The notes: generated from the letters alone by a model not told the origin. DNA of 28,575 bases from an uncultured Polyangiaceae bacterium (GCA_964415255.1 CAYQAC010000023.1:18430-47004), one strand, 5' to 3'. Positions 9,128 through 26,095 are shown, counted from the first letter of the stretch. A program made the numbers and translations.

Positions 9128-10042
9128 CTAGCGGTAGCTCACCTGGAGCTCGAAGCCGCCCCACTCGTCGTCGTTCGAGGTGTCGAGGAATAGGTAGTAT
9201 ACCTGCCCTTCCGTCGCGTTGAACAGCAGGCTCACGGGGGCGAAGTTAGGGTCCGAGGCGCAGGCGATGGGTGATGGAGCACAGCTGCCCTCCGACACGT
9301 AGACGCTCTTCTCGAACGGGCCGGTCGCGTACAGCAGCACCTCACCGCTCTGTGGTGCGGTGAGCGCGAACACCAGATCCCCACCCCCCTGGGAGCCGCC
9401 GCCGCAACGCGGGTTGTAGTGATCGCGAGCGGAGCCGTTCGAACCCTTGATGGTCCAGCACTCGGTGCCGCTGGGTAAGGCCTGGCCGCTGCACGTGTCG
9501 GCGGTGGACGTCGACGTCACCGTCAGGCAGCCGCCCGAACCACCTCCCGAGCCCCCGGAGCCTGAGCTCCCGCCCGAGCCGCCGGTTGCGCCGCTGCCGC
9601 CGGTCGCGCCGCTGCCACCTGAGCCGCTAGTGGCGCCGCTGCCGCCGGTTGCGCCGCTGCCACCGGTTGCGCCGGTTGCGCCGCTGCCGCCAGTGGCACC
9701 GCTGCCGCCAGTTGCGCCACTGCCGCCCGCCGCGCCACTGCCGCCCGAGCCGCCGGCGCCGCTGCCCCCAGCGCCCGCTCCACCTGAACCCCCCGCGGCG
9801 CTGCCGCCCACGCCGCCCGTGCCAGCAAAGCTGCCGCCCGCGCCGCCTGCGCCACCGCTCGCGGCTGCGCCGCCCGCGCCACCGCTATTCCCTGCGGCAC
9901 CGCCGTCGCCGCCGCTCGCCCCCGAGGCGTCAGGGCTCAGCGGGATCTCACCGAAGCCCACGTCCGTCGCGCAGCCCACTCCAGCCCAGGGGAGCAGCAG
10001 CGAGATGACGGTCAGGGCGTGACGGGTGACGTGAGGGCGCAC
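9128..10042 (-). CDS. Lipoprotein with a long Gly/Ser/Ala/Thr-rich repeat linker and a Cys-containing beta-rich C-terminal domain (pre-peptidase-C-terminal-like; function unknown)
   Basis: GTG start. The signal peptide plus lipobox is ...LLLPWAGVGC. About 140 aa of GGSGAT-type repeats follow. The folded-looking tail is CLTVTST...GQVYYLFLDTSNDDEWGGFELQVSYR. The Pro-rich antisense ORF 9447..10022 lacks any start context or domain outside the repeat. Confidence 0.75.
   Translation of the reverse strand: MRPHVTRHALTVISLLLPWAGVGCATDVGFGEIPLSPDASGASGGDGGAAGNSGGAGGAAASGGAGGAGGSFAGTGGVGGSAAGGSGGAGAGGSGAGGSGGSGAAGGSGATGGSGATGGSGATGATGGSGATGGSGATSGSGGSGATGGSGATGGSGGSSGSGGSGGGSGGCLTVTSTSTADTCSGQALPSGTECWTIKGSNGSARDHYNPRCGGGSQGGGDLVFALTAPQSGEVLLYATGPFEKSVYVSEGSCAPSPIACASDPNFAPVSLLFNATEGQVYYLFLDTSNDDEWGGFELQVSYR
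9540..9900 (-). repeat. In-frame coding tandem repeats (18-bp GGTTGCGCCGCTGCCGCC-type units on the + strand, encoding GGSGAT on the - strand)
   Basis: Visible runs ccggttgcgccgctgccgcc / ggtcgcgccgctgccacc / agtggcaccgctgccgcc / agttgcgccactgccgcc. They lie within CDS 9128..10042. Confidence 0.8.
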
Positions 10043-10219: not shown

Positions 10220-10648
10220 TCACTCGTCGGAGACGCGCTGGGTGAAGACGACGGTCGTGGGGCTGGCGGCGGAGTCGCCGCCCTCCACGCTCACGGCCAA
10301 ATCGAACTTCAGCTCGGGGACGGAGAAGTCCTTGAGCGTCCCCTTGCGGCTGCTCTCGTCGTAGTCGAGGTTGCCGAGGCGGCTCCACTGGGAGGCGTCG
10401 TTCTTGCGGAACCACACCACGAAGCCGGTGCCCTTCGGATCGAGGTCGGCGGGGGGCTGGAGGAACTCGACCTCAATGGTCAGGCGGGTGGTCTTGGTGT
10501 CCTCCTGGGTCTTGCCCTCAATGCGCGCGATGGCGCCGGTGGCGGGCGGCTTGCCCTTCGCCTCATAGGAGAGCCCACCGCAGCCAGCGGCGAAGGTGGC
10601 GACCGAGAGGATGACGGCGACGGAGGTTTTACGAAGCAGGTTCAGCAT
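10220..10648 (-). CDS. Small lipoprotein of unknown function
   Basis: The internal ATG at 10648 gives MLNLLRKTSVAVILSVATFAAGCGG (signal peptide plus lipobox), with GGAG 11 nt upstream. The 76-codon extension to 10876 is Arg/Ala-rich junk. The rest of the protein has balanced, beta-rich composition. Confidence 0.7.
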   Translation of the reverse strand: MLNLLRKTSVAVILSVATFAAGCGGLSYEAKGKPPATGAIARIEGKTQEDTKTTRLTIEVEFLQPPADLDPKGTGFVVWFRKNDASQWSRLGNLDYDESSRKGTLKDFSVPELKFDLAVSVEGGDSAASPTTVVFTQRVSDE

Positions 10649-14905: not shown

Positions 14906-16198
14906 GTGTCGAAGCTCCTCATGCCCCGCGACCCAACGTCCGAGCACCCAGGCGCTCCTCATCAGGATCAGCCTGTGGCTGAAGGGGGAGCGCCGGAGCT
15001 CGCCGCGCCTGAATCGGAGGCGCCGGTGGTGCGAGCGAGCCGCGTGGCCGCGCTCGGGCGCTCGCGCTGGGACCAGCTGGTCGGTGCGCTGGTCGCCTCC
15101 GTGGCGCTCCACGCCTTGGTGGTGGCGCCGGTGGTGCTCTTGGTGGCGCCCTCAGGGGCTGAAGCCCCGCCGCCGCCTGACGTGTGGGCGGGAGCGACCC
15201 TGGACGTCGCGCTCGCGGAGCTGGCGGGGCCTGAGGAGCTAGCGGGCGCCGAGCCTCCCGGGCTCGCCGCCGCACAGCCGGACGCGCCGCCACCCGCTGA
15301 GCCTGTCGCCGCTCCGCAGCCAGTGGCCTTGGCGGCGCCGCCAAAGGCGCCAGAGGCGCCAGAGGCGCCCACCGCTGAGCCGGCATCGCCGAGCGTCGCG
15401 CCCGCGCCGCTCGCTTTACCGCCGCCGGTCGCCTTTCCCAGCCCCCTTGAACCCAGCGAGCCGACGCGGCCGCGCCGCGAGCACGCCAAGGGCCCCCCGG
15501 ATCGCTCCGGGCGAAGCGGGCGGACCCCTCGGCGCCGCGCTGAGCGGCGCGCGTGGCGGCGAGACGAAGAACAGCGTGAGGCGCGGCGAGGTGAGCGGCG
15601 AGATGAGGCGCGGCGAGCAGCGCGTGGTGGGCGCGGTGGGCCCCCTGCGTCGGCGCCGAGCGCCTCGGGAGCGCCCCCTGGTTCGTCCGTCGGGGAGGCC
15701 GCTGGCGCGGCTCCGGACACACCGGGCGCGGCCGGGCTACCGCGCGGCGTCCGTCAGCTGCCCACCGCGCTCACTCGGGTGCTCCCGCGCGTCGCGGTAG
15801 GTGACGCGCGCTTCACCGAGCATGCACCTGGTTTCCTTGGGGAAATTAAGTTCACGATCGCCGTGAGCAGCGCCGGGGCCATCACCGAGGTGACGTTCGC
15901 GCCCGACAGCGATCCGCTGCTTCAAGGCTTGGTGGAGCGCGCCGTGCGCTTCTTGGGAAAGGGTCAGTTCGCGTTGCGTGACTCGGCTGAGGAGCTGGGA
16001 GGCGTGCAGCAGGTGATCTTGAAGGTGACGCTCAGTCAGGGCGCGCCCGATGAAGACACGGACGATCCGTCAGCGACCCGGTCTATCGGCTTCGATCCAC
16101 CGAAGCCAACCAGCGACGGCGCGCGTCGCGGCGTTGGTTACTTCGAGCTTCAAGGCGGGCTGCGCTTGGAGCTCGCCACCCATTTCGCGAGGGACTGA
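14906..16198 (+). CDS. TonB-like / proline-rich membrane-anchored protein
   Basis: The architecture is an N-terminal single TM (LVGALVASVALHALVVAPVVLLVA), a long Pro/Ala/Glu-rich spacer, an Arg/Glu-rich segment, and a C-terminal ~110-aa mixed alpha/beta domain (GEIKFTIAVSSAGAITEVTFAPDSDPLLQGLVERAVRFL) resembling a TonB C-terminal fold. The start codon is uncertain. The antisense ORFs 14919..15722 and 14968..15720 are low-complexity shadows. Confidence 0.6.
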   Translation: MSKLLMPRDPTSEHPGAPHQDQPVAEGGAPELAAPESEAPVVRASRVAALGRSRWDQLVGALVASVALHALVVAPVVLLVAPSGAEAPPPPDVWAGATLDVALAELAGPEELAGAEPPGLAAAQPDAPPPAEPVAAPQPVALAAPPKAPEAPEAPTAEPASPSVAPAPLALPPPVAFPSPLEPSEPTRPRREHAKGPPDRSGRSGRTPRRRAERRAWRRDEEQREARRGERRDEARRAARGGRGGPPASAPSASGAPPGSSVGEAAGAAPDTPGAAGLPRGVRQLPTALTRVLPRVAVGDARFTEHAPGFLGEIKFTIAVSSAGAITEVTFAPDSDPLLQGLVERAVRFLGKGQFALRDSAEELGGVQQVILKVTLSQGAPDEDTDDPSATRSIGFDPPKPTSDGARRGVGYFELQGGLRLELATHFARD

Positions 16199-16364
16199 GC
16201 GCCTGACGAAGGGGAGCGAGCGCAGGGCCAAGCGCTCTGGAGCGAGCTGTTGAGGCGCGGTTCGCGAAGGAGTGAGCGTGGCGCATGGTCGCGGTGAGCG
16301 GCCGCGCGTCACCTCTGGGTGCTAACTAGAGCGCATCCAGGAGCGTGAGAGGGGATATGAGCGC

Positions 16365-16612
16365 TGTGGATAACTTGGGGCAGCTTGTGGATAAGCTGCG
16401 ACTAGCGTTGGGGTTGAGGTCTTGTCCGTCGCCTCGGGCGAGCTGAGGTGCGCGCCCTCGTGATGCTGGATAGCCAATAAAATACGCGCGATCGGCGGCG
16501 CTTGGGGCGGCGTCTTCATGTGCGTCGCCTTCATGCGCGGCAGCGCGTCGTAGCGCTGGCGCCGGCAGAATATCCATATGGATAGTGGTAGCTGTGGATA
16601 ACTCATGGATAA
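16365..16612 (+). promoter_or_regulatory. DnaA-box cluster: three perfect TGTGGATAA (= TTATCCACA) 9-mers plus at least three 2-mismatch boxes
   Basis: The perfect boxes are at 16365-16373, 16386-16394 and 16593-16601, all in the same orientation. The degenerate boxes are ATATCCATA at 16570-16578 (opposite orientation), TATGGATAG at 16577-16585 and CATGGATAA at 16604-16612. An AT-rich patch (TCGATTCATGATTTTTGAG) follows immediately at 16622-16640. I saw no perfect box anywhere else in the window. Confidence 0.65.
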
Positions 16613-16641
16613 CTTCTGCTGTCGATTCATGATTTTTGAGC

Positions 16642-16670
16642 TTGCGTAAGTGGCAAGTTGGAGGCATAAA
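16642..16670 (+). promoter_or_regulatory. Possible sigma70-type promoter TTGCGT-N17-CATAAA pointing into the ORF-free region
   Basis: The -35-like TTGCGT is at 16642-16647, followed by an exact 17-nt spacer and the -10-like CATAAA at 16665-16670. This is a pattern match only, and consensus rules for this phylum are uncertain. Confidence 0.25.
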
Positions 16671-18740
16671 CAGGTCTGGAAGTTCGCGGGCCATTCGGGT
16701 CGCGGGCATCTCGAAGGTAGAGGTCATTCGGGGCACCTCGGGCGCAGCTTGCTGAGCCCGGTCTCCGCGCGGTGGGAGAGCGTTCAAGAGCTCTCATCGG
16801 GTGGGGTCAAACAGGGTGTTGACACCAGGCTTGCCGCGTCAGGCCTGGGTCGAGCCAGCGCGAGCTGGTCCACGGGTGGCCGAAGGGGCTCTGGCCTCTC
16901 CGGGTTCGTCAGCTTTCGCGAGCGGGCGGTTTCGGGTGGGTCTTGACGGGTTCGGTGTCGCTGGGTGTCTCTAACGCACAGCGGCTCGGGTTTCGTGACG
17001 AAGGGGCCTTCGGTGATGGGCGAGTCGGCGGTGTATCCTACCGGGAGCACGCTGGGTCGAACGTCGCCGGCCGCCAACGGGTGCGTGGTCGGTGTCGATG
17101 GGCACTAGGTCAGGCACACTCACTGTTGGTGGCCACGTGCTGCGTCGCAGCGCTGCCGTGCAACTCGTTTGCAAGGTGGCCCACTGAGCGCAGCCAGCCC
17201 GGGCGACCCACCAAGGCATTTGTCGAGGTGGCTAGCGGGGGCTGAGTGGTCTTCGGGTGTTCGTGGCGGTGCTCGTGTCTCCATGACAAGTGGCAAGGTC
17301 CTGTGGGGTGGGCGCACGCTTCAAGCGGCGTCTGCTCACTCAGGGCACAGAGGGTCCCTCGGGGGGCTTCATGGCTGTGGCGGTCACGCGTCGCGGTCTG
17401 GCCTCCCTTCGGCTCTGGGTCCTCCTTGAAGCTCCTCCGCCTGCGAAGGCGGGCGGGGCCGAGGCGTCAAAAAGCGCCTCACGGGGAGTTCAGAGTGACG
17501 GGTGTCGGGTAGAGCGCTGCGTTTCGGCGGAGCGGTGTGCCAGGCGCCTTGGGGCCTCAGAAGCTCGTCGCTTCATCACTGGGTCGCGCCCTTTGGCAAC
17601 TGCCAAGGGTGCTGTGGCCACGGTGGCACCATCAGGGGGAAGATAACGCCCCCAAGTGGAGCAGAGCGGCGGAGGCGGAAGCTGAGCGGCTGGCGTGAAC
17701 CAGCGGCTCAGCCTGCGGCGCGCGGCGCCCCGTGAGGGGTGAGGTGGGTCGTGGGTCACTTGGTCTAGGAGCGCGGGTGCGCGTCTTTGACATGCAGGTT
17801 GCAATGACTGGTCGAACGCATCTTGGGTCGGCTCAGGTCGCTAGCGCGAGCTAGCGGTTGGGTCCGGTCTAGTGTCGAGTGAAGCCGGGTTGAGCGGCGC
17901 GTAGAGAACCTACGCTCCTTTCGTCCTGGTGGGAGAGAGGCATGAATGGGTGCGCTGGGTAGGGGTTGGTTTGAACGCTGACTCCAGGCCTGGGCCTAGG
18001 CTGCTCGCTCGCGAGTGGGCTTAGGTGATTCGACACAGAAATAGGTGCGCTGGAGCGCGCACAGTGGGTCCCTCTAACCCGGGGCTCGCAGGTGGCGCTC
18101 CAACCCGCGGGTTAAGCCTCTGGCTGCCCATCGGTTTGTGACGCGCAGGGCCCAACGGTGCCGTAAGGAACCTGGTGGGAGCGGCGGTCGACGTCTGAAC
18201 AAGGCTCGGTCACCGCGCTGCGATGCGCGAAGGTGTTTCACCCTCGCGTAAGCGTCACACGGCCGAGAGGTCGCTGGAGAGGAGCTCGCACAGCCGGTTA
18301 GAGCCGGTGGTGTGAGCTGCCCGTAGGGTCTAGGTGTTGGGTCGTCTTGGGGTGCGGCTCGAGTAAGTCAGGTTCGGTGACGAACATGGCCTGTTCGGGT
18401 TCGCTGGCGTCGCCGCTGTGCGGCGCTCGTACCAGGGCCCCCGTAGGTGAGCGAGCTGCCGGTAACGGCGGTGCGTCGCCCATGTTCATCTGAGCGCATC
18501 AGCGGAAGGGGTTAGGTGGTGTCAGGCTCCCTCAGCCTTCATCGATGACGCGTAGCGCTCCTAGCAAGGAGCACCCCCACAGCGGGGCTACGCCGAGATC
18601 GGGGCGCAGGGGGTCTGCTGTCCGGTGGCAAGTGCCGCCGGCTTCGGTGACAGCGAGCGGGCTTCGGTCTGCCGCTGCTCCCAGCGGAGTGTTATCGCGC
18701 GGAAATGGTAGCACCCCGCGTCGTGTCAGCTGACTCGGCG

Positions 18741-18794
18741 GTGGCCTTGGGCCACGTTCGTGGCCTTCGGCCATGAAGTCGCGGCCTTTGGCCG
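18741..18794 (+). repeat. Three consecutive related mini-hairpins built on GGCC-TTN-GGCC
   Basis: The hairpins are GTGGCC-TTG-GGCCAC (18741-18755), GTGGCC-TTC-GGCCAT (18760-18774, with a terminal G-U pair) and CGGCC-TTT-GGCCG (18782-18794). The last two are each followed by TGAAG. Confidence 0.7.
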
Positions 18795-19444
18795 TGAAGC
18801 TGAGCCAGGGCGCGCCTCCTTGAGGTGGGTTTTCGGTCTGTGCCGGCGTTGCCGGTGCTGTAACGAGCCCTCCTCGCAGAGCGCGCTGGCGTGGCGCCGA
18901 CGACAGTCGACGCAGCGCCCTTCAGGGCCTTTCAAAGGGGGCCTTGGAGTCACGACGAAGCCGGTGCAGGCGCCACGACGTGTGTGACGGCCGTGTTGAC
19001 GGTGGTGAGCCACGCTGTTGGGGTTTGTGTTCGCACAGCTCTAATAGTGGGGTGGGTTCTTGCTCATGCTTCGCGTGAGGAGGAGGCCGAGCCACAGTTT
19101 CACAGCTCAGCACACCTTAGGGACTAGCCATCGAACCTCCGCCAAAGCTCGACACGCGAGCTCACCCGCTCCCCTTGAGGGTTGCCGCTTGGCCCACCAA
19201 GCGGTGGGTTGAGTGTCCTTGGTTTCCCGTGAGGGTCATCAGGGTCCGGCAGTCTTCAGGCTGTCAGCGTGTCCACTCGAGTCTTGCCCCGCCAGCGCGA
19301 ACTGCGCGAAGGCAGAGGAGAGAACCTGCATGAAGTCGTCGTGTGTCACGGCGCGCTGCGAGCGCGTCGTGGAGGTAGATGAAGGCGTTGAACGCACGCC
19401 AGAGGAGCTTGATTGCTCCCCATCAACCAGCGCACTTCCCAAAA

Positions 19445-19479
19445 GCGACCCGGGTGACCGGGTCGCTTTTGCTTTTTTG
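19445..19479 (+). terminator. Canonical Rho-independent terminator (possibly bidirectional)
   Basis: The stem is GCGACCCGG (19445-19453), the loop is GTGA, and the return stem is CCGGGTCGC (19458-19466), followed by TTTTGCTTTTTTG. An upstream CCCAAAA gives a weaker 4-U tract for the minus strand. Confidence 0.8.
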
Positions 19480-19507
19480 TCGCGCGCTTCCCAGGCGCTG
19501 CGGTCAC

Positions 19508-19684
19508 GCCTTCGATGCGTCGGTGCGCTGAGCGCTTGGCGGCGCCGAGCGCGCTACCAGGCGCAGACCTGCGCTGAGCGCGATGCGTTTGCGTGACGCT
19601 TGGCTTCGATGCGTCCGTGCGCTGAGCGCGATGCGTTTGCGTGGCGCTTGGCTTCGATGCGTCCATGCGCTGAGCGCGCTTGCC
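19508..19684. repeat. 48-bp tandem repeat, two full copies plus partial copies at both ends
   Basis: The unit is GCGCTGAGCGCGATGCGTTTGCGTGRCGCTTGGCTTCGATGCGTCCRT. Full copies are at 19571-19618 and 19619-19666 and differ at 2 positions. Partial copies are at 19508-19545 and 19667-19684. Confidence 0.85.
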
Positions 19685-19692
19685 GGCACCGC

Positions 19693-20458
19693 TCAGCTGC
19701 GCCCGACGACCTCGATGGGGGAGATGGGGAAGACGCGTGGGTCCTTGCCGCGGTCGAAGCGCACGCGGATGATGTTCCCCACCGCGACCTTGGGCATCGA
19801 CTCACTACGGACGAGCCAGGCCTCCTCGTCGCGAAACGACGCACCGCCAGCGGCTGGGGTGACGTCCACCAGGGCTAGCACCAGCGTGCCCCCCTTCACG
19901 TAGTCCACCTTGAGGACAGCCACCTTGACGAACCGCGCGCGCCCCTCGGCGCCGAAGTTGTAGACCAAGGCGGAGACGAGGTGCGGCGCGATGAAGCGAA
20001 CGAGCAGCGCCGCCGCCGCGAGGCGCCAGCAAGGCGAGCCCTAGCTCACCCTGAACGGCTCGCAGCGCAGCCCACCCAGCGCCCGCGAGCGACCCGCTGA
20101 TCAACAAGAAGACGATCAGCATCGCGCCCCATTGCATCGGCATGCGGCGCGTGAGTCGGAACAAGAGCGGCGTGATGAGCTGCTTCACGGCCTCTGAGGC
20201 CTCGGCCTGCGTCACCGCGGCGTGCTCGCTGTAGAGCGCGATGGCTTCATCCTGGCGCCCAGCGACGACGAGCTGCTTCACCTGCTCGACGATGGCGTGC
20301 GGCACCTGGTCGGCGGCGAGCCTCACGGGGCCGGGCGTCGCGGGATCGGCCACGACGCGCACGCTGGTATTGCAGTAGGCGCACAGCGCGATCTGCTGGG
20401 TGGCCTGGAGCGGCAAGGGCGCGCCGCAGTGGGGACAAGTCAGGGTGTGTGCCTGCAT
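19693..20458 (-). pseudogene. Zinc-ribbon / L7-L12-CTD-like / two-TM / beta-rich C-terminal domain membrane protein, apparently split by a frameshift near 20020-20040
   Basis: The ATG at 20458 has GAGGAG 5 nt upstream and gives MQAHTLTCPHCGAPL...CAYCNTSV (a CxxC...CxxC zinc ribbon). Next come VKQLVVAGRQDEAIALYSEHAAVTQAEASEAVKQL and a TM segment (WGAMLIVFLLISGSLAGAGWAAL), after which the frame decays into Arg/Gly junk. The frame of ORF 19693..19968 is open back to 20040 and reads WRLAAAALLVRFIAPHLVSALVYNFGAEGRARFVKVAVLKVDY..., with no ATG or GTG start before the TTG at 19968. The junction sits in a GCGGCGGCGGCG run. Confidence 0.6.
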
Positions 20459-20645
20459 GAATGCTCCTCGGCGCGACGAGGCGCTGGGTGCTCGCTGACG
20501 GTCAGTGTGACGTACTGTTTGCGGCGCCGTGGGGAACGATGCGGTGCAGCGAGGGACCGCACGGCGCTGCCACCACACCGGGCTGCCTCACGGCGCCGCG
20601 CTCGTCCAGCGCCGTGGGAAGCGATGCCTCACCGCGCGAAGGGGC

Positions 20646-24589: not shown

Positions 24590-26095
24590 GTGGCCACCGT
24601 ACATGAGCATGACGAAGCGGGCGTGCGTTGCCTCACGCTGGACAACCCTCCTTTGAATCCGCTCGCCGATGCGCTGCTCGAAGCGCTCACGGCCGCGCTC
24701 GATCGCGCCGAAGCTGACGGCGTGGAGGCGCTGGTCTTAGCCGGGGCGGGTGACACCTTCGTCGCCGGCGCGGACATCCGCCGCCTCCAGGCGCTGGCGC
24801 GCGGCGAGTCCGAAGGCGCTCCGACGCCATCGCTTGACGCTGCGCCCGAGCGCCCACGACCCGCGCTGGGTGAGCTGATCTTGCGCTTGGAGGACTGGCC
24901 GGCGCCGGTGGTCGCGGCGATTGACGGCTTCGCGCTCGGCGGCGGCTTGGAGCTGGCGCTCGGCTGTCACCACCGCGTGGCGACGGCTGAGGCGCGGCTC
25001 GGCTTGCCCGAGCTGAGCTTGGGCTTGATCCCCGGCGCCGGAGGCACTCAGCGCCTGCCGCGCTTGATTGGGCTTCAGGCCGCGCTGGAGCTGATGCTGA
25101 GCTCGCGTCAGCTCGAGGCGCCGGAGGCGCACACCCGTGGGTTGGTGGATGAGCTGACGTCGCGCGGGGAGCTGCTCACGGCGGCCGTTCAGGCGGCGCG
25201 GCGGCTGATCGGGGCGCCGCTCAGGCGGACGCGCTGGCTCGCGGATCGCCTCGAGACGGGGGAGGCGGCGCGCGCGTTGGCGCTCGCGGCGCGCGCGCAG
25301 CTCACTCGGGAGCAGCAGCTCGTGCGCTTCCCGGCCCACTGCCTCGACGCGGCGCTCACCGGCGCGCTCGAGGGGGCAGCGCGCGGCCTTGAGGTGGAGC
25401 GCGAGCGCTTCCAGGAGTGCCTGAAGGACCCCGCCGCAGGGGCGATGATCTACCTGTTCTTCGCGGCGCGCGTCGCCAAGAAGGCGGGGGTGAAGCTGCG
25501 CGGGCCGGAGGCGGCGCCGCTCTTGCGCCGGCTGTTGAAGCCGCCGGCGGAGGCGGCGGCCTGGCTCGTGTCGCGCGGGGCTTCGCCGCGCGAGGTGCAG
25601 GACGAGCTCGAGGCATTCGGGTGGTCGCTTGCGCCAGCTGGGTCGGCCAGGGAGCCCCAGTGCGGCGCCAGCGCTAGTCTAGAGAATTTCCTTGAGGAAA
25701 TGATGGGTGCACACGACGCCTCGCAGGACGCCGCGTCGGGGGCCTCGGTGGCTTCGAGCGCCTCGGGAGCCTTGAGCGCATCCAGTCAGGTTAACTGCTC
25801 AGTGCCGCGTGAGGAGTGGATCGCGCGGCTGCTGTACCCGCTCGTGAGCGAGGCCTGTCAGGCGCTGGCGGATGGCGACGCCGCGCGGGCGAGCGATCTG
25901 GATCTCGCGCTCCACCTCGGCGCTGGCTTCCCCCGGTTCCGCGGCGGCCCGCTGCGGTGGGCTGCAGCGAGCGAGCCGCTGGTCGTCCTGACGGCGCTCA
26001 CGCGCTTTCATCAAGAGACGGGCGCCGCGGTGTTTCGCCCGAGCGCAGCGCTCGAGGCGCAGGCGAAGCTCGGGCGCTGGTTCACGGGCGAGTGA
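24590..26095 (+). CDS. Enoyl-CoA hydratase/isomerase (crotonase) domain fused to a 3-hydroxyacyl-CoA dehydrogenase C-terminal-type domain
   Basis: Crotonase blocks are LVLAGAGDTFVAGADI and AAIDGFALGGGLELALGCHHRVAT...LGLPELSLGLIPGAGGTQRLPRLIG. The C-terminal IARLLYPLVSEACQALADGDAARASDLDLALHLGAGFPRFRGGPLRWA is 3HCDH_C-like. I saw no GxGxxG Rossmann motif. I chose the GTG at 24590 because the track start at 24479 overlaps the divergent gene; the start remains uncertain. Confidence 0.8.
   Translation: MATVHEHDEAGVRCLTLDNPPLNPLADALLEALTAALDRAEADGVEALVLAGAGDTFVAGADIRRLQALARGESEGAPTPSLDAAPERPRPALGELILRLEDWPAPVVAAIDGFALGGGLELALGCHHRVATAEARLGLPELSLGLIPGAGGTQRLPRLIGLQAALELMLSSRQLEAPEAHTRGLVDELTSRGELLTAAVQAARRLIGAPLRRTRWLADRLETGEAARALALAARAQLTREQQLVRFPAHCLDAALTGALEGAARGLEVERERFQECLKDPAAGAMIYLFFAARVAKKAGVKLRGPEAAPLLRRLLKPPAEAAAWLVSRGASPREVQDELEAFGWSLAPAGSAREPQCGASASLENFLEEMMGAHDASQDAASGASVASSASGALSASSQVNCSVPREEWIARLLYPLVSEACQALADGDAARASDLDLALHLGAGFPRFRGGPLRWAAASEPLVVLTALTRFHQETGAAVFRPSAALEAQAKLGRWFTGE

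Follow-up and report, generated by a model that had tools for sequence, protein, structure and literature searches.

A conserved DnaA-box cluster upstream of a large structured noncoding RNA in Polyangiaceae: a candidate DnaA operator array

DnaA doubles as a transcription factor, and most of the direct targets known for it are protein genes. In E. coli, datA, DARS1, and DARS2 are chromosomal DnaA-box clusters outside oriC which control initiator availability and depend on an IHF site. The large structured RNA classes OLE, GOLLD, ROOL, and raiA have lengths of about 200–800 nt. In B. subtilis, DnaA controls transcription from box clusters outside the origin, among them those of sda, ywlC, and yydA (PMC2533591, PMC4447404, PMC3245932). 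These clusters (DBCs) are conserved in relatives and bind DnaA stably; they control the promoter next to them and, in addition, titrate the initiator (PMC2533591, PMC3245932, PMC4447404). In Caulobacter, the noncoding RNA CcnA (182 nt) is activated by CtrA and is located within a proven origin (PMC8959179).

The locus described here is part of a window of 28,575 nucleotides, i.e., the whole stretch of DNA that was analyzed. It is a chromosomal segment of 68% GC, and its closest protein relatives are found in the Polyangiaceae (Myxococcota). As in the B. subtilis DBCs, high- and low-affinity boxes are combined in an intergenic region, here with putative binding and regulation. The locus differs from the DBCs in its target, which is a ~2.8-kb structured noncoding RNA and not a protein gene, in its high-GC myxobacterial host, and in the arrangement of the boxes in two groups ~210 bp apart. 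With the core of oriC, it shares tandem boxes in the same orientation with a 2-bp gap and a distal group that might act by looping (PMC6669920, PMC8287927), but conserved DnaA-trios, an AT-rich element on the correct side, a skew inversion, and origin-linked genes are missing here. Unlike datA and DARS1/2, the cluster has no IHF consensus, shows no sequence relationship to these loci, and is locked to a promoter.

Like CcnA, the RNA has its promoter among (here predicted) sites for a master regulator of replication or the cell cycle (PMC8959179); unlike CcnA, it is ~15 times longer, the sites are DnaA boxes, and the locus is not origin-like. It resembles OLE, GOLLD, ROOL, and raiA in being ORF-free, conserved, structured, and equipped with its own promoter (here putative) and terminator (PMC10898510, PMC10861870). 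In contrast to these classes, it has no Rfam match, is several times longer with ~2.8 kb, and was found in two genomes only. The novelty is the target, a very large, uncatalogued structured RNA; the kind of cluster itself resembles the DnaA-regulated promoters of B. subtilis.

DnaA boxes and the putative promoter

A scan of the whole window for TTATCCACA gave three exact matches, all on the - strand (TGTGGATAA on the + strand): box A at 16365–16373, box B at 16386–16394 in the same orientation and 21 bp from A (start to start), and box C at 16593–16601. These three 9-mers had been reported in a previous sequence-only reading of this DNA, and we found no other exact copy in the window. That reading had also estimated fewer than 0.1 chance occurrences, which agrees with dinucleotide shuffles of the window: the mean was 0.01, and no shuffle reached three. 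Scaled from 0.01 per 28.6 kb, a few perfect boxes per 10 Mb would be expected by chance.

Weaker boxes with two mismatches, which had likewise been noted, are present at 16570 (+, ATATCCATA), 16577 (-, CTATCCATA), and 16604 (-, TTATCCATG). Boxes of this quality are not enriched across the window (24 versus 16.9 expected), and thus the weak boxes count only by their location. The core TGGATAA was expected 0.2 times in the window and was found four times, each time at the box cluster. The weak boxes 16570–16578 (+) and 16577–16585 (-) are inverted and overlap, which creates the perfect 14-bp palindrome TATCCATATGGATA (16571–16584, without strand). The third weak box, D (16604–16612, -), follows the perfect box C at a distance of 2 bp and in the same orientation, which results in an 11-bp period. 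The distal group is ~210 bp away from this tandem proximal pair. Altogether, three perfect and three weak boxes are found within 250 bp of a 470-bp intergenic spacer, an arrangement that would also be expected for an oriC.

A syntenic locus (L001) was reached through the DUF7790 homologue in the MAG Polyangiaceae bacterium ACE_MYX1. As only these two genomes carry the locus, every comparative statement is based on n = 2, and the statistics for conservation and covariation are thin. The intergenic spacer is ~63% identical between the two genomes with many indels; nonetheless, all DnaA boxes are retained. Conservation and synteny of the cluster in relatives had been suggested as a check, and both apply to ACE_MYX1, the only relative found. 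Box A of ACE_MYX1 is at L001 8167–8175, and the distance from A to B (start to start) is 20 bp versus 21 bp in the window. The 14-mer of the palindrome is identical, with one half being a 1-mismatch box in ACE_MYX1, and a 24-nt block in the region of box D (CTGTGGATAACTCATGGATAACTT) is identical as well. ACE_MYX1 has one additional 1-mismatch box farther upstream. A perfect box was absent from all 14 further loci that we fetched; most of these are from other Polyangiaceae, and one was an unrelated chance match.

Downstream of the boxes, conservation points to a promoter with a putative -35 hexamer TTGCGT (16642–16647, +; TTGCAT in ACE_MYX1) and a putative -10 hexamer CATAAA (16665–16670, +; the same in both genomes). 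The 17-nt spacer between them has kept its length and changed its sequence. Transcription would start at ~16677 ± 3, and the region after CATAAA is invariant between the two genomes. The pair was not called in a promoter consensus scan because CATAAA is devoid of the final T. This T is usually invariant in -10 hexamers. Two other candidates were rejected as they are not conserved in ACE_MYX1: a sigma-54 promoter, for which GG-N10-GC fits the window (manual inspection), and a promoter on the - strand (16656 to 16629), which the scan tool had suggested.

The conserved block GCTGTCGATTC and the T-tract TTTTTGAGC (together 16618–16641, +) are situated just 5′ of the -35 hexamer and may be regarded as an UP-element-like region. 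This region corresponds to the AT-rich patch that had been singled out at 16622–16640 as a plausible unwinding element. The patch reads as quoted and is contained in the 30-mer at 16608, which, with 67% AT, shares the highest AT content of the window with the one at 25675. Its assignment as an unwinding element, however, does not fit: the patch is only ~20–30 bp long, has a lower AT content in ACE_MYX1, is located on the wrong side of the boxes, and runs directly into the conserved -35 hexamer of the -35/-10 pair.

We then expressed the position of each box as the offset from the -10 hexamer. In the window and in ACE_MYX1, respectively, the offsets are -61 and -63 for box D, -72 and -74 for box C (start of the box), and -95 and -97 for the palindrome. 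Thus, the proximal set is fixed relative to the promoter, with offsets that differ by 2 bp in the two genomes available, and boxes C, D, and the palindrome are all within ~100 bp of the putative promoter. The distal boxes are at -279 and -293 (box B) and at -300 and -313 (box A). This pair is therefore shifted by 13–14 bp between the genomes, which is slightly over one helical turn.

A phage contig, IMGVR_UViG_3300044940_000576 (L017), carries an identical 23-nt double box, CTGTGGATAACTCATGGATAACT, at 10520–10545. The contig is AT-rich, and the double box is intergenic, after a terminator-like hairpin and 5′ of a 500-aa ORF without Pfam match, with NinG downstream. Only part of the identity in its flank is accounted for by the extended consensus of the DnaA box, which is also seen at E. 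coli R4.

The candidate ~2.8-kb transcription unit

The region ~16677–19478 (+) is an ORF-free, conserved, structured noncoding RNA unit of ~2.8 kb, 89% identical between the two genomes, with its own terminator. 23S rRNA has about the same length. The identity profile along the locus delimits the unit: values are 60–90% in the coding flanks, drop to ~0.4–0.6 per 100 nt in the spacer (16200–16590), jump to 0.84–0.97 at ~16600, remain high for 2.9 kb, and collapse just past the terminator (~19480). The intrinsic terminator (19440–19478, +) is strong and consists of a 14-bp stem, a GUGA loop, and a U-run.

Several observations identify the unit as noncoding. From ~16200 to 19480, there is no ORF of more than ~150 codons in any frame, and the codon-position GC periodicity, which is strong in the flanking genes, is gone. 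Substitutions relative to ACE_MYX1 are evenly spread over the three codon phases (108/108/99). Transitions and transversions amount to 217 and 98 (ratio 2.2) versus a ratio near 1 or below in the flanks, and most indels are not multiples of 3. Pfam searches with all ORFs of at least ~80 aa in and around the region gave no family. A search of the protein database with a concatenated six-frame pseudo-protein of the RNA retrieved nothing; it also missed the ORF which the gene calls of the collection place over the region in ACE_MYX1, and it thus carries no weight here.

The signals of structure are specific for the + strand. Single-sequence MFE folding of the two sequences gave a weak signal, with 64% of the changed pairs still paired versus ~57% in shifted controls. 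Instead of counting MFE pairs, we therefore used alignment-fold energies against column shuffles in 160-column windows (n = 35), together with coding controls. The mean z was -2.63 on the + strand and -0.53 on the - strand, and z was below -2 in 22 of the 35 windows on the + strand versus 3 of 35 on the - strand. Mean z values of four coding flanks, used as controls, were between -0.5 and +0.5. Stable GNRA-capped hairpins are found 10 times on the + strand and once on the - strand (shuffles of the + strand: mean 2.2, maximum 8). In the terminator stem, we noticed one compensatory change from A-U to G-C relative to ACE_MYX1 and one C-to-U change which preserves pairing (G.U) on the + strand only; as elsewhere, this covariation is from two sequences.

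The RNA region is composed of 37% G, 28% C, 20% T, and 15% A. The excess of G over C and T over A to the right of the boxes, as stated in the sequence-only reading, is thus real (GC skew +0.14). Its direction had been noted as that expected for a leading strand leaving an origin, though with a strength unusual for replication skew; this bias, however, is what G.U-rich structured RNAs usually show (U over A in the RNA) and not a replication skew.

We searched for relatives of the RNA in different collections. Rfam 15, which includes rRNA, group II introns, OLE, GOLLD, and ROOL, gave no match at gathering thresholds in the whole window; in E-value mode (16200–19700), only sub-threshold chance matches appeared from 19178 to 19565, most of them near the terminator. 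The Rfam searches at both thresholds thus excluded that the RNA is a degenerate 23S rRNA, a group II intron, or one of the large noncoding RNAs already known. No tRNA or tmRNA was detected by the respective scan. An exact 20-mer of the RNA was found among the GTDB species genomes in ACE_MYX1 only, and a second 20-mer had one chance match in JGI metagenomes, inside a coding region. BLAST against plasmids and phages and a search of IMG/VR gave no homologue of the RNA, and nhmmer with the RNA against the fetched loci recovered ACE_MYX1 only. The candidate RNA may itself represent a new class.

ACE_MYX1 has insertions of 16–48 nt in the RNA, at window positions ~17427, 17452, 18147, and 18360. The larger ones are built from short, repeated units that look like hairpins (e.g., of the CTCCTTCAAAGGAG type, three copies) and resemble expansion segments on a conserved core.

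Possible roles of the box cluster

In our preferred reading, the cluster is not a replication origin but serves the promoter of the giant noncoding RNA as a DnaA operator array with two parts (probability about 0.6). A DnaA-regulated promoter firing into the ORF-free region was the third of the possibilities raised in the sequence-only reading, and it is favored by boxes which are locked to a conserved promoter-like pair. In this array, DnaA would be anchored at the high-affinity sites A (about -300), B (about -279), and C (-72). ATP-DnaA could spread cooperatively to the adjacent weak sites, i.e., box D and the palindrome at -95/-88, using an 11-bp period as in the low-affinity arrays of characterized origins. 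The distal pair A/B may loop onto the proximal set. The edge of the proximal oligomer would be located 29–31 bp 5′ of the -35 hexamer, beside the T-rich UP-like tract, and could contact or occlude RNA polymerase. With a DnaA complex next to the UP-like tract and the -35 hexamer, synthesis of the ~2.8-kb RNA would track the level of DnaA-ATP and hence the status of replication initiation.

Activation seems somewhat more likely than repression (roughly 60:40), as the sites are 5′ of the core promoter and do not overlap with it. DnaA occupancy, the sign of the regulation, and a function of the RNA are parts of this reading that we infer, as are the promoter and its start site. In this main reading, which is a milder version of the combined origin scenario considered below, the candidate would be a new bacterial RNA of RNP scale whose synthesis is licensed by DnaA-ATP. 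An array locked to the RNA promoter would tie the replication initiator to a very large RNA. The link predicts both the timing of RNA synthesis (as DnaA-ATP rises) and the critical 50 bp.

Some features do not fit easily with an operator. With seven boxes in two groups, the cluster exceeds the need of most DnaA-regulated promoters, and a distal group with a proximal tandem pair also recalls the architecture of origins (PMC6669920, PMC8287927). Moreover, dnaA, dnaN, and a competing box cluster were not located in these two genomes.

A first alternative is a site similar to datA/DARS or to a B. subtilis DBC which titrates DnaA or changes its nucleotide state, with the promoter being adjacent by coincidence. 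As the only role of the cluster, we regard this as unlikely. Several high-affinity boxes are present where chance boxes should be very rare, non-origin clusters with such a role are known (PMC3245932, PMC2533591), and the conservation of the boxes by itself fits equally well. What titration does not explain is the spacing between the proximal boxes and the -35/-10 pair, which is maintained to within 2 bp, while the rest of the spacer is free to vary. The IHF consensus WATCARNNNNTTR is also absent from the spacer in both genomes. A datA/DARS-like site, which had been put forward in the sequence-only reading, is compatible with the regulated promoter but leaves this fixed distance unexplained. 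The two roles are not exclusive, as B. subtilis clusters do both. Since perfect boxes should be very rare in a genome with 68% GC, the locus probably also sequesters a meaningful share of the cellular DnaA.

Next, the cluster could be the oriC of this lineage, displaced from dnaA. DnaA on both groups would then open the DNA close by, and transcription of the neighboring RNA might help to activate the origin. We judge this to be improbable. Origin finders search for just such a density of perfect boxes, and the most AT-rich 30-mer of the window is located here. The two-part layout is like that of the loop-assisted incC of B. subtilis, and tandem boxes with the upstream one nearer to the consensus, as seen here when read on the + strand, are a common pattern in origins (PMC6669920, PMC8287927). 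Furthermore, the Caulobacter origin contains a noncoding RNA gene (PMC8959179), and the published origin of Sorangium is a computed call with a non-canonical box, so the Polyangiaceae origin is not experimentally fixed (PMC2650636).

The geometry, however, argues against an origin. The AT-rich element is too short, as described above, and its composition is not conserved. In E. coli, the unwinding element adjoins R1, 3′ of the box on the TTATCCACA strand. The order in B. subtilis is boxes 6/7, then trios, then the AT-rich element, again 3′ of the box on the TTATCCACA strand (PMC6669920, PMC8287927). At our locus, the expected unwinding side is to the left of the boxes. The DNA there is rich in GC and not conserved, and the AT patch is found on the opposite side. 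Read in the direction of the boxes, the perfect box C is nearer to the trio side and the upstream box D is weaker, which is the reverse of the common pattern. In an origin, at least three consecutive DnaA-trios (3′-NAN-5′) would be expected within 16 bp of a box (PMC8287927). A manual phase-by-phase reading 3′ of boxes A and C found no such run in the window. A loose run of three trios occurs in the flank of the palindrome in ACE_MYX1 only; hence, trios are not conserved.

The surroundings do not support an origin either. On the + strand, the GC3 skew is above zero on both sides of the cluster, with +0.064 (pooled; positive in 8 of 10 genes) on the left and +0.154 (positive in all 8 genes) on the right. 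The bulk skew is likewise positive on both sides, and neither of the two inverts at the cluster within the 28.6 kb covered. The GC3 pattern would fit a single fork that traverses the region better than two diverging forks. Pfam scans of all large ORFs in the window detected none of dnaA, dnaN, gyrB, parAB, and rnpA, and a parS site was not found in the window. These results agree with two earlier remarks, namely that dnaA and dnaN are not nearby and that the neighbors are not classic origin genes. The four genes on the right are oriented towards the cluster. When more distant relatives were examined by synteny walks starting at either flanking gene, no ORF-free gap was found, i.e., those with a homologue of either gene have no comparable intergenic region beside it. 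Altogether, these findings do not support the proposal of an oriC displaced from dnaA. For origin prediction in high-GC myxobacteria, this calls for caution, as oriC is not necessarily located where perfect boxes are most densely clustered.

A combination of both roles appears more doubtful still: a true origin, displaced from dnaA, with an internal DnaA-dependent promoter that fires the 2.8-kb RNA, which joins or reports initiation. If true, this would be a giant RNA embedded in an origin, far larger than CcnA of Caulobacter, and computed origin calls of the Sorangium type would be wrong.

Least probable, in our opinion, is that another dimeric regulator occupies the palindrome and related half-sites, with DnaA being irrelevant, or that the ORF-free region is not a functional RNA and the boxes are orphans: dimeric helix-turn-helix proteins typically bind to sites like the perfect 14-bp palindrome, and the covariation from two sequences is close to the shifted controls, but three 9/9 matches to the universal DnaA box are direct and not inverted, and strand-specific z-scores, GNRA excess, terminator, and sharp conservation boundaries are independent signals for an RNA.

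Flanking genes

To the left of the cluster, the window encodes a family 2 glycosyltransferase, a methyltransferase, an aldo-keto reductase, a TPP enzyme, an arginyl-tRNA synthetase, FtsH, and a DUF7790 protein. The nearest gene on this side encodes a proline/alanine-rich protein and ends at 16198; this “TonB-like” protein has no Pfam match. As listed, its ORF (+) and the divergent DUF7790 ORF (-) overlap by ~200 nt (14906–15112). Since homologues of the DUF7790 protein have ~400 aa, at least its start codon is over-extended. Farther to the left, at 9501–10000, a spike of 80% GC with a GC skew of -0.21 is located within a 304-aa ORF of the - strand without Pfam match.

On the right, tandem and dispersed repeats of 26–48 nt (e.g., TGCGCTGAGCGCGATGCGTTTGCGTGRCGCTTGGCTTCGATGCGTCC, two copies) occupy 19510–19690, between the terminator and the convergent gene, and are missing from ACE_MYX1. 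In relatives (L010–L015, Logan contigs), homologues of the convergent 257-aa gene are directly followed by a convergent long ORF (up to >1148 aa) at the position of the RNA. The placement of the RNA and box module is therefore lineage-specific.

The 257-aa ORF (19805–20578, -) has an N-terminal zinc-ribbon-like motif, CPHC...CAYC, and its C-terminal third appears to be out of frame. The codon-position GC changes its phase near 20050, into the frame of a 91-aa ORF (19693–19968). The segment 19693–20578 (-) may represent two genes that overlap or are frameshifted, or it may contain a programmed frameshift. This segment is the most conserved DNA of the locus, with 96.5% identity to ACE_MYX1 including an 8-nt indel.
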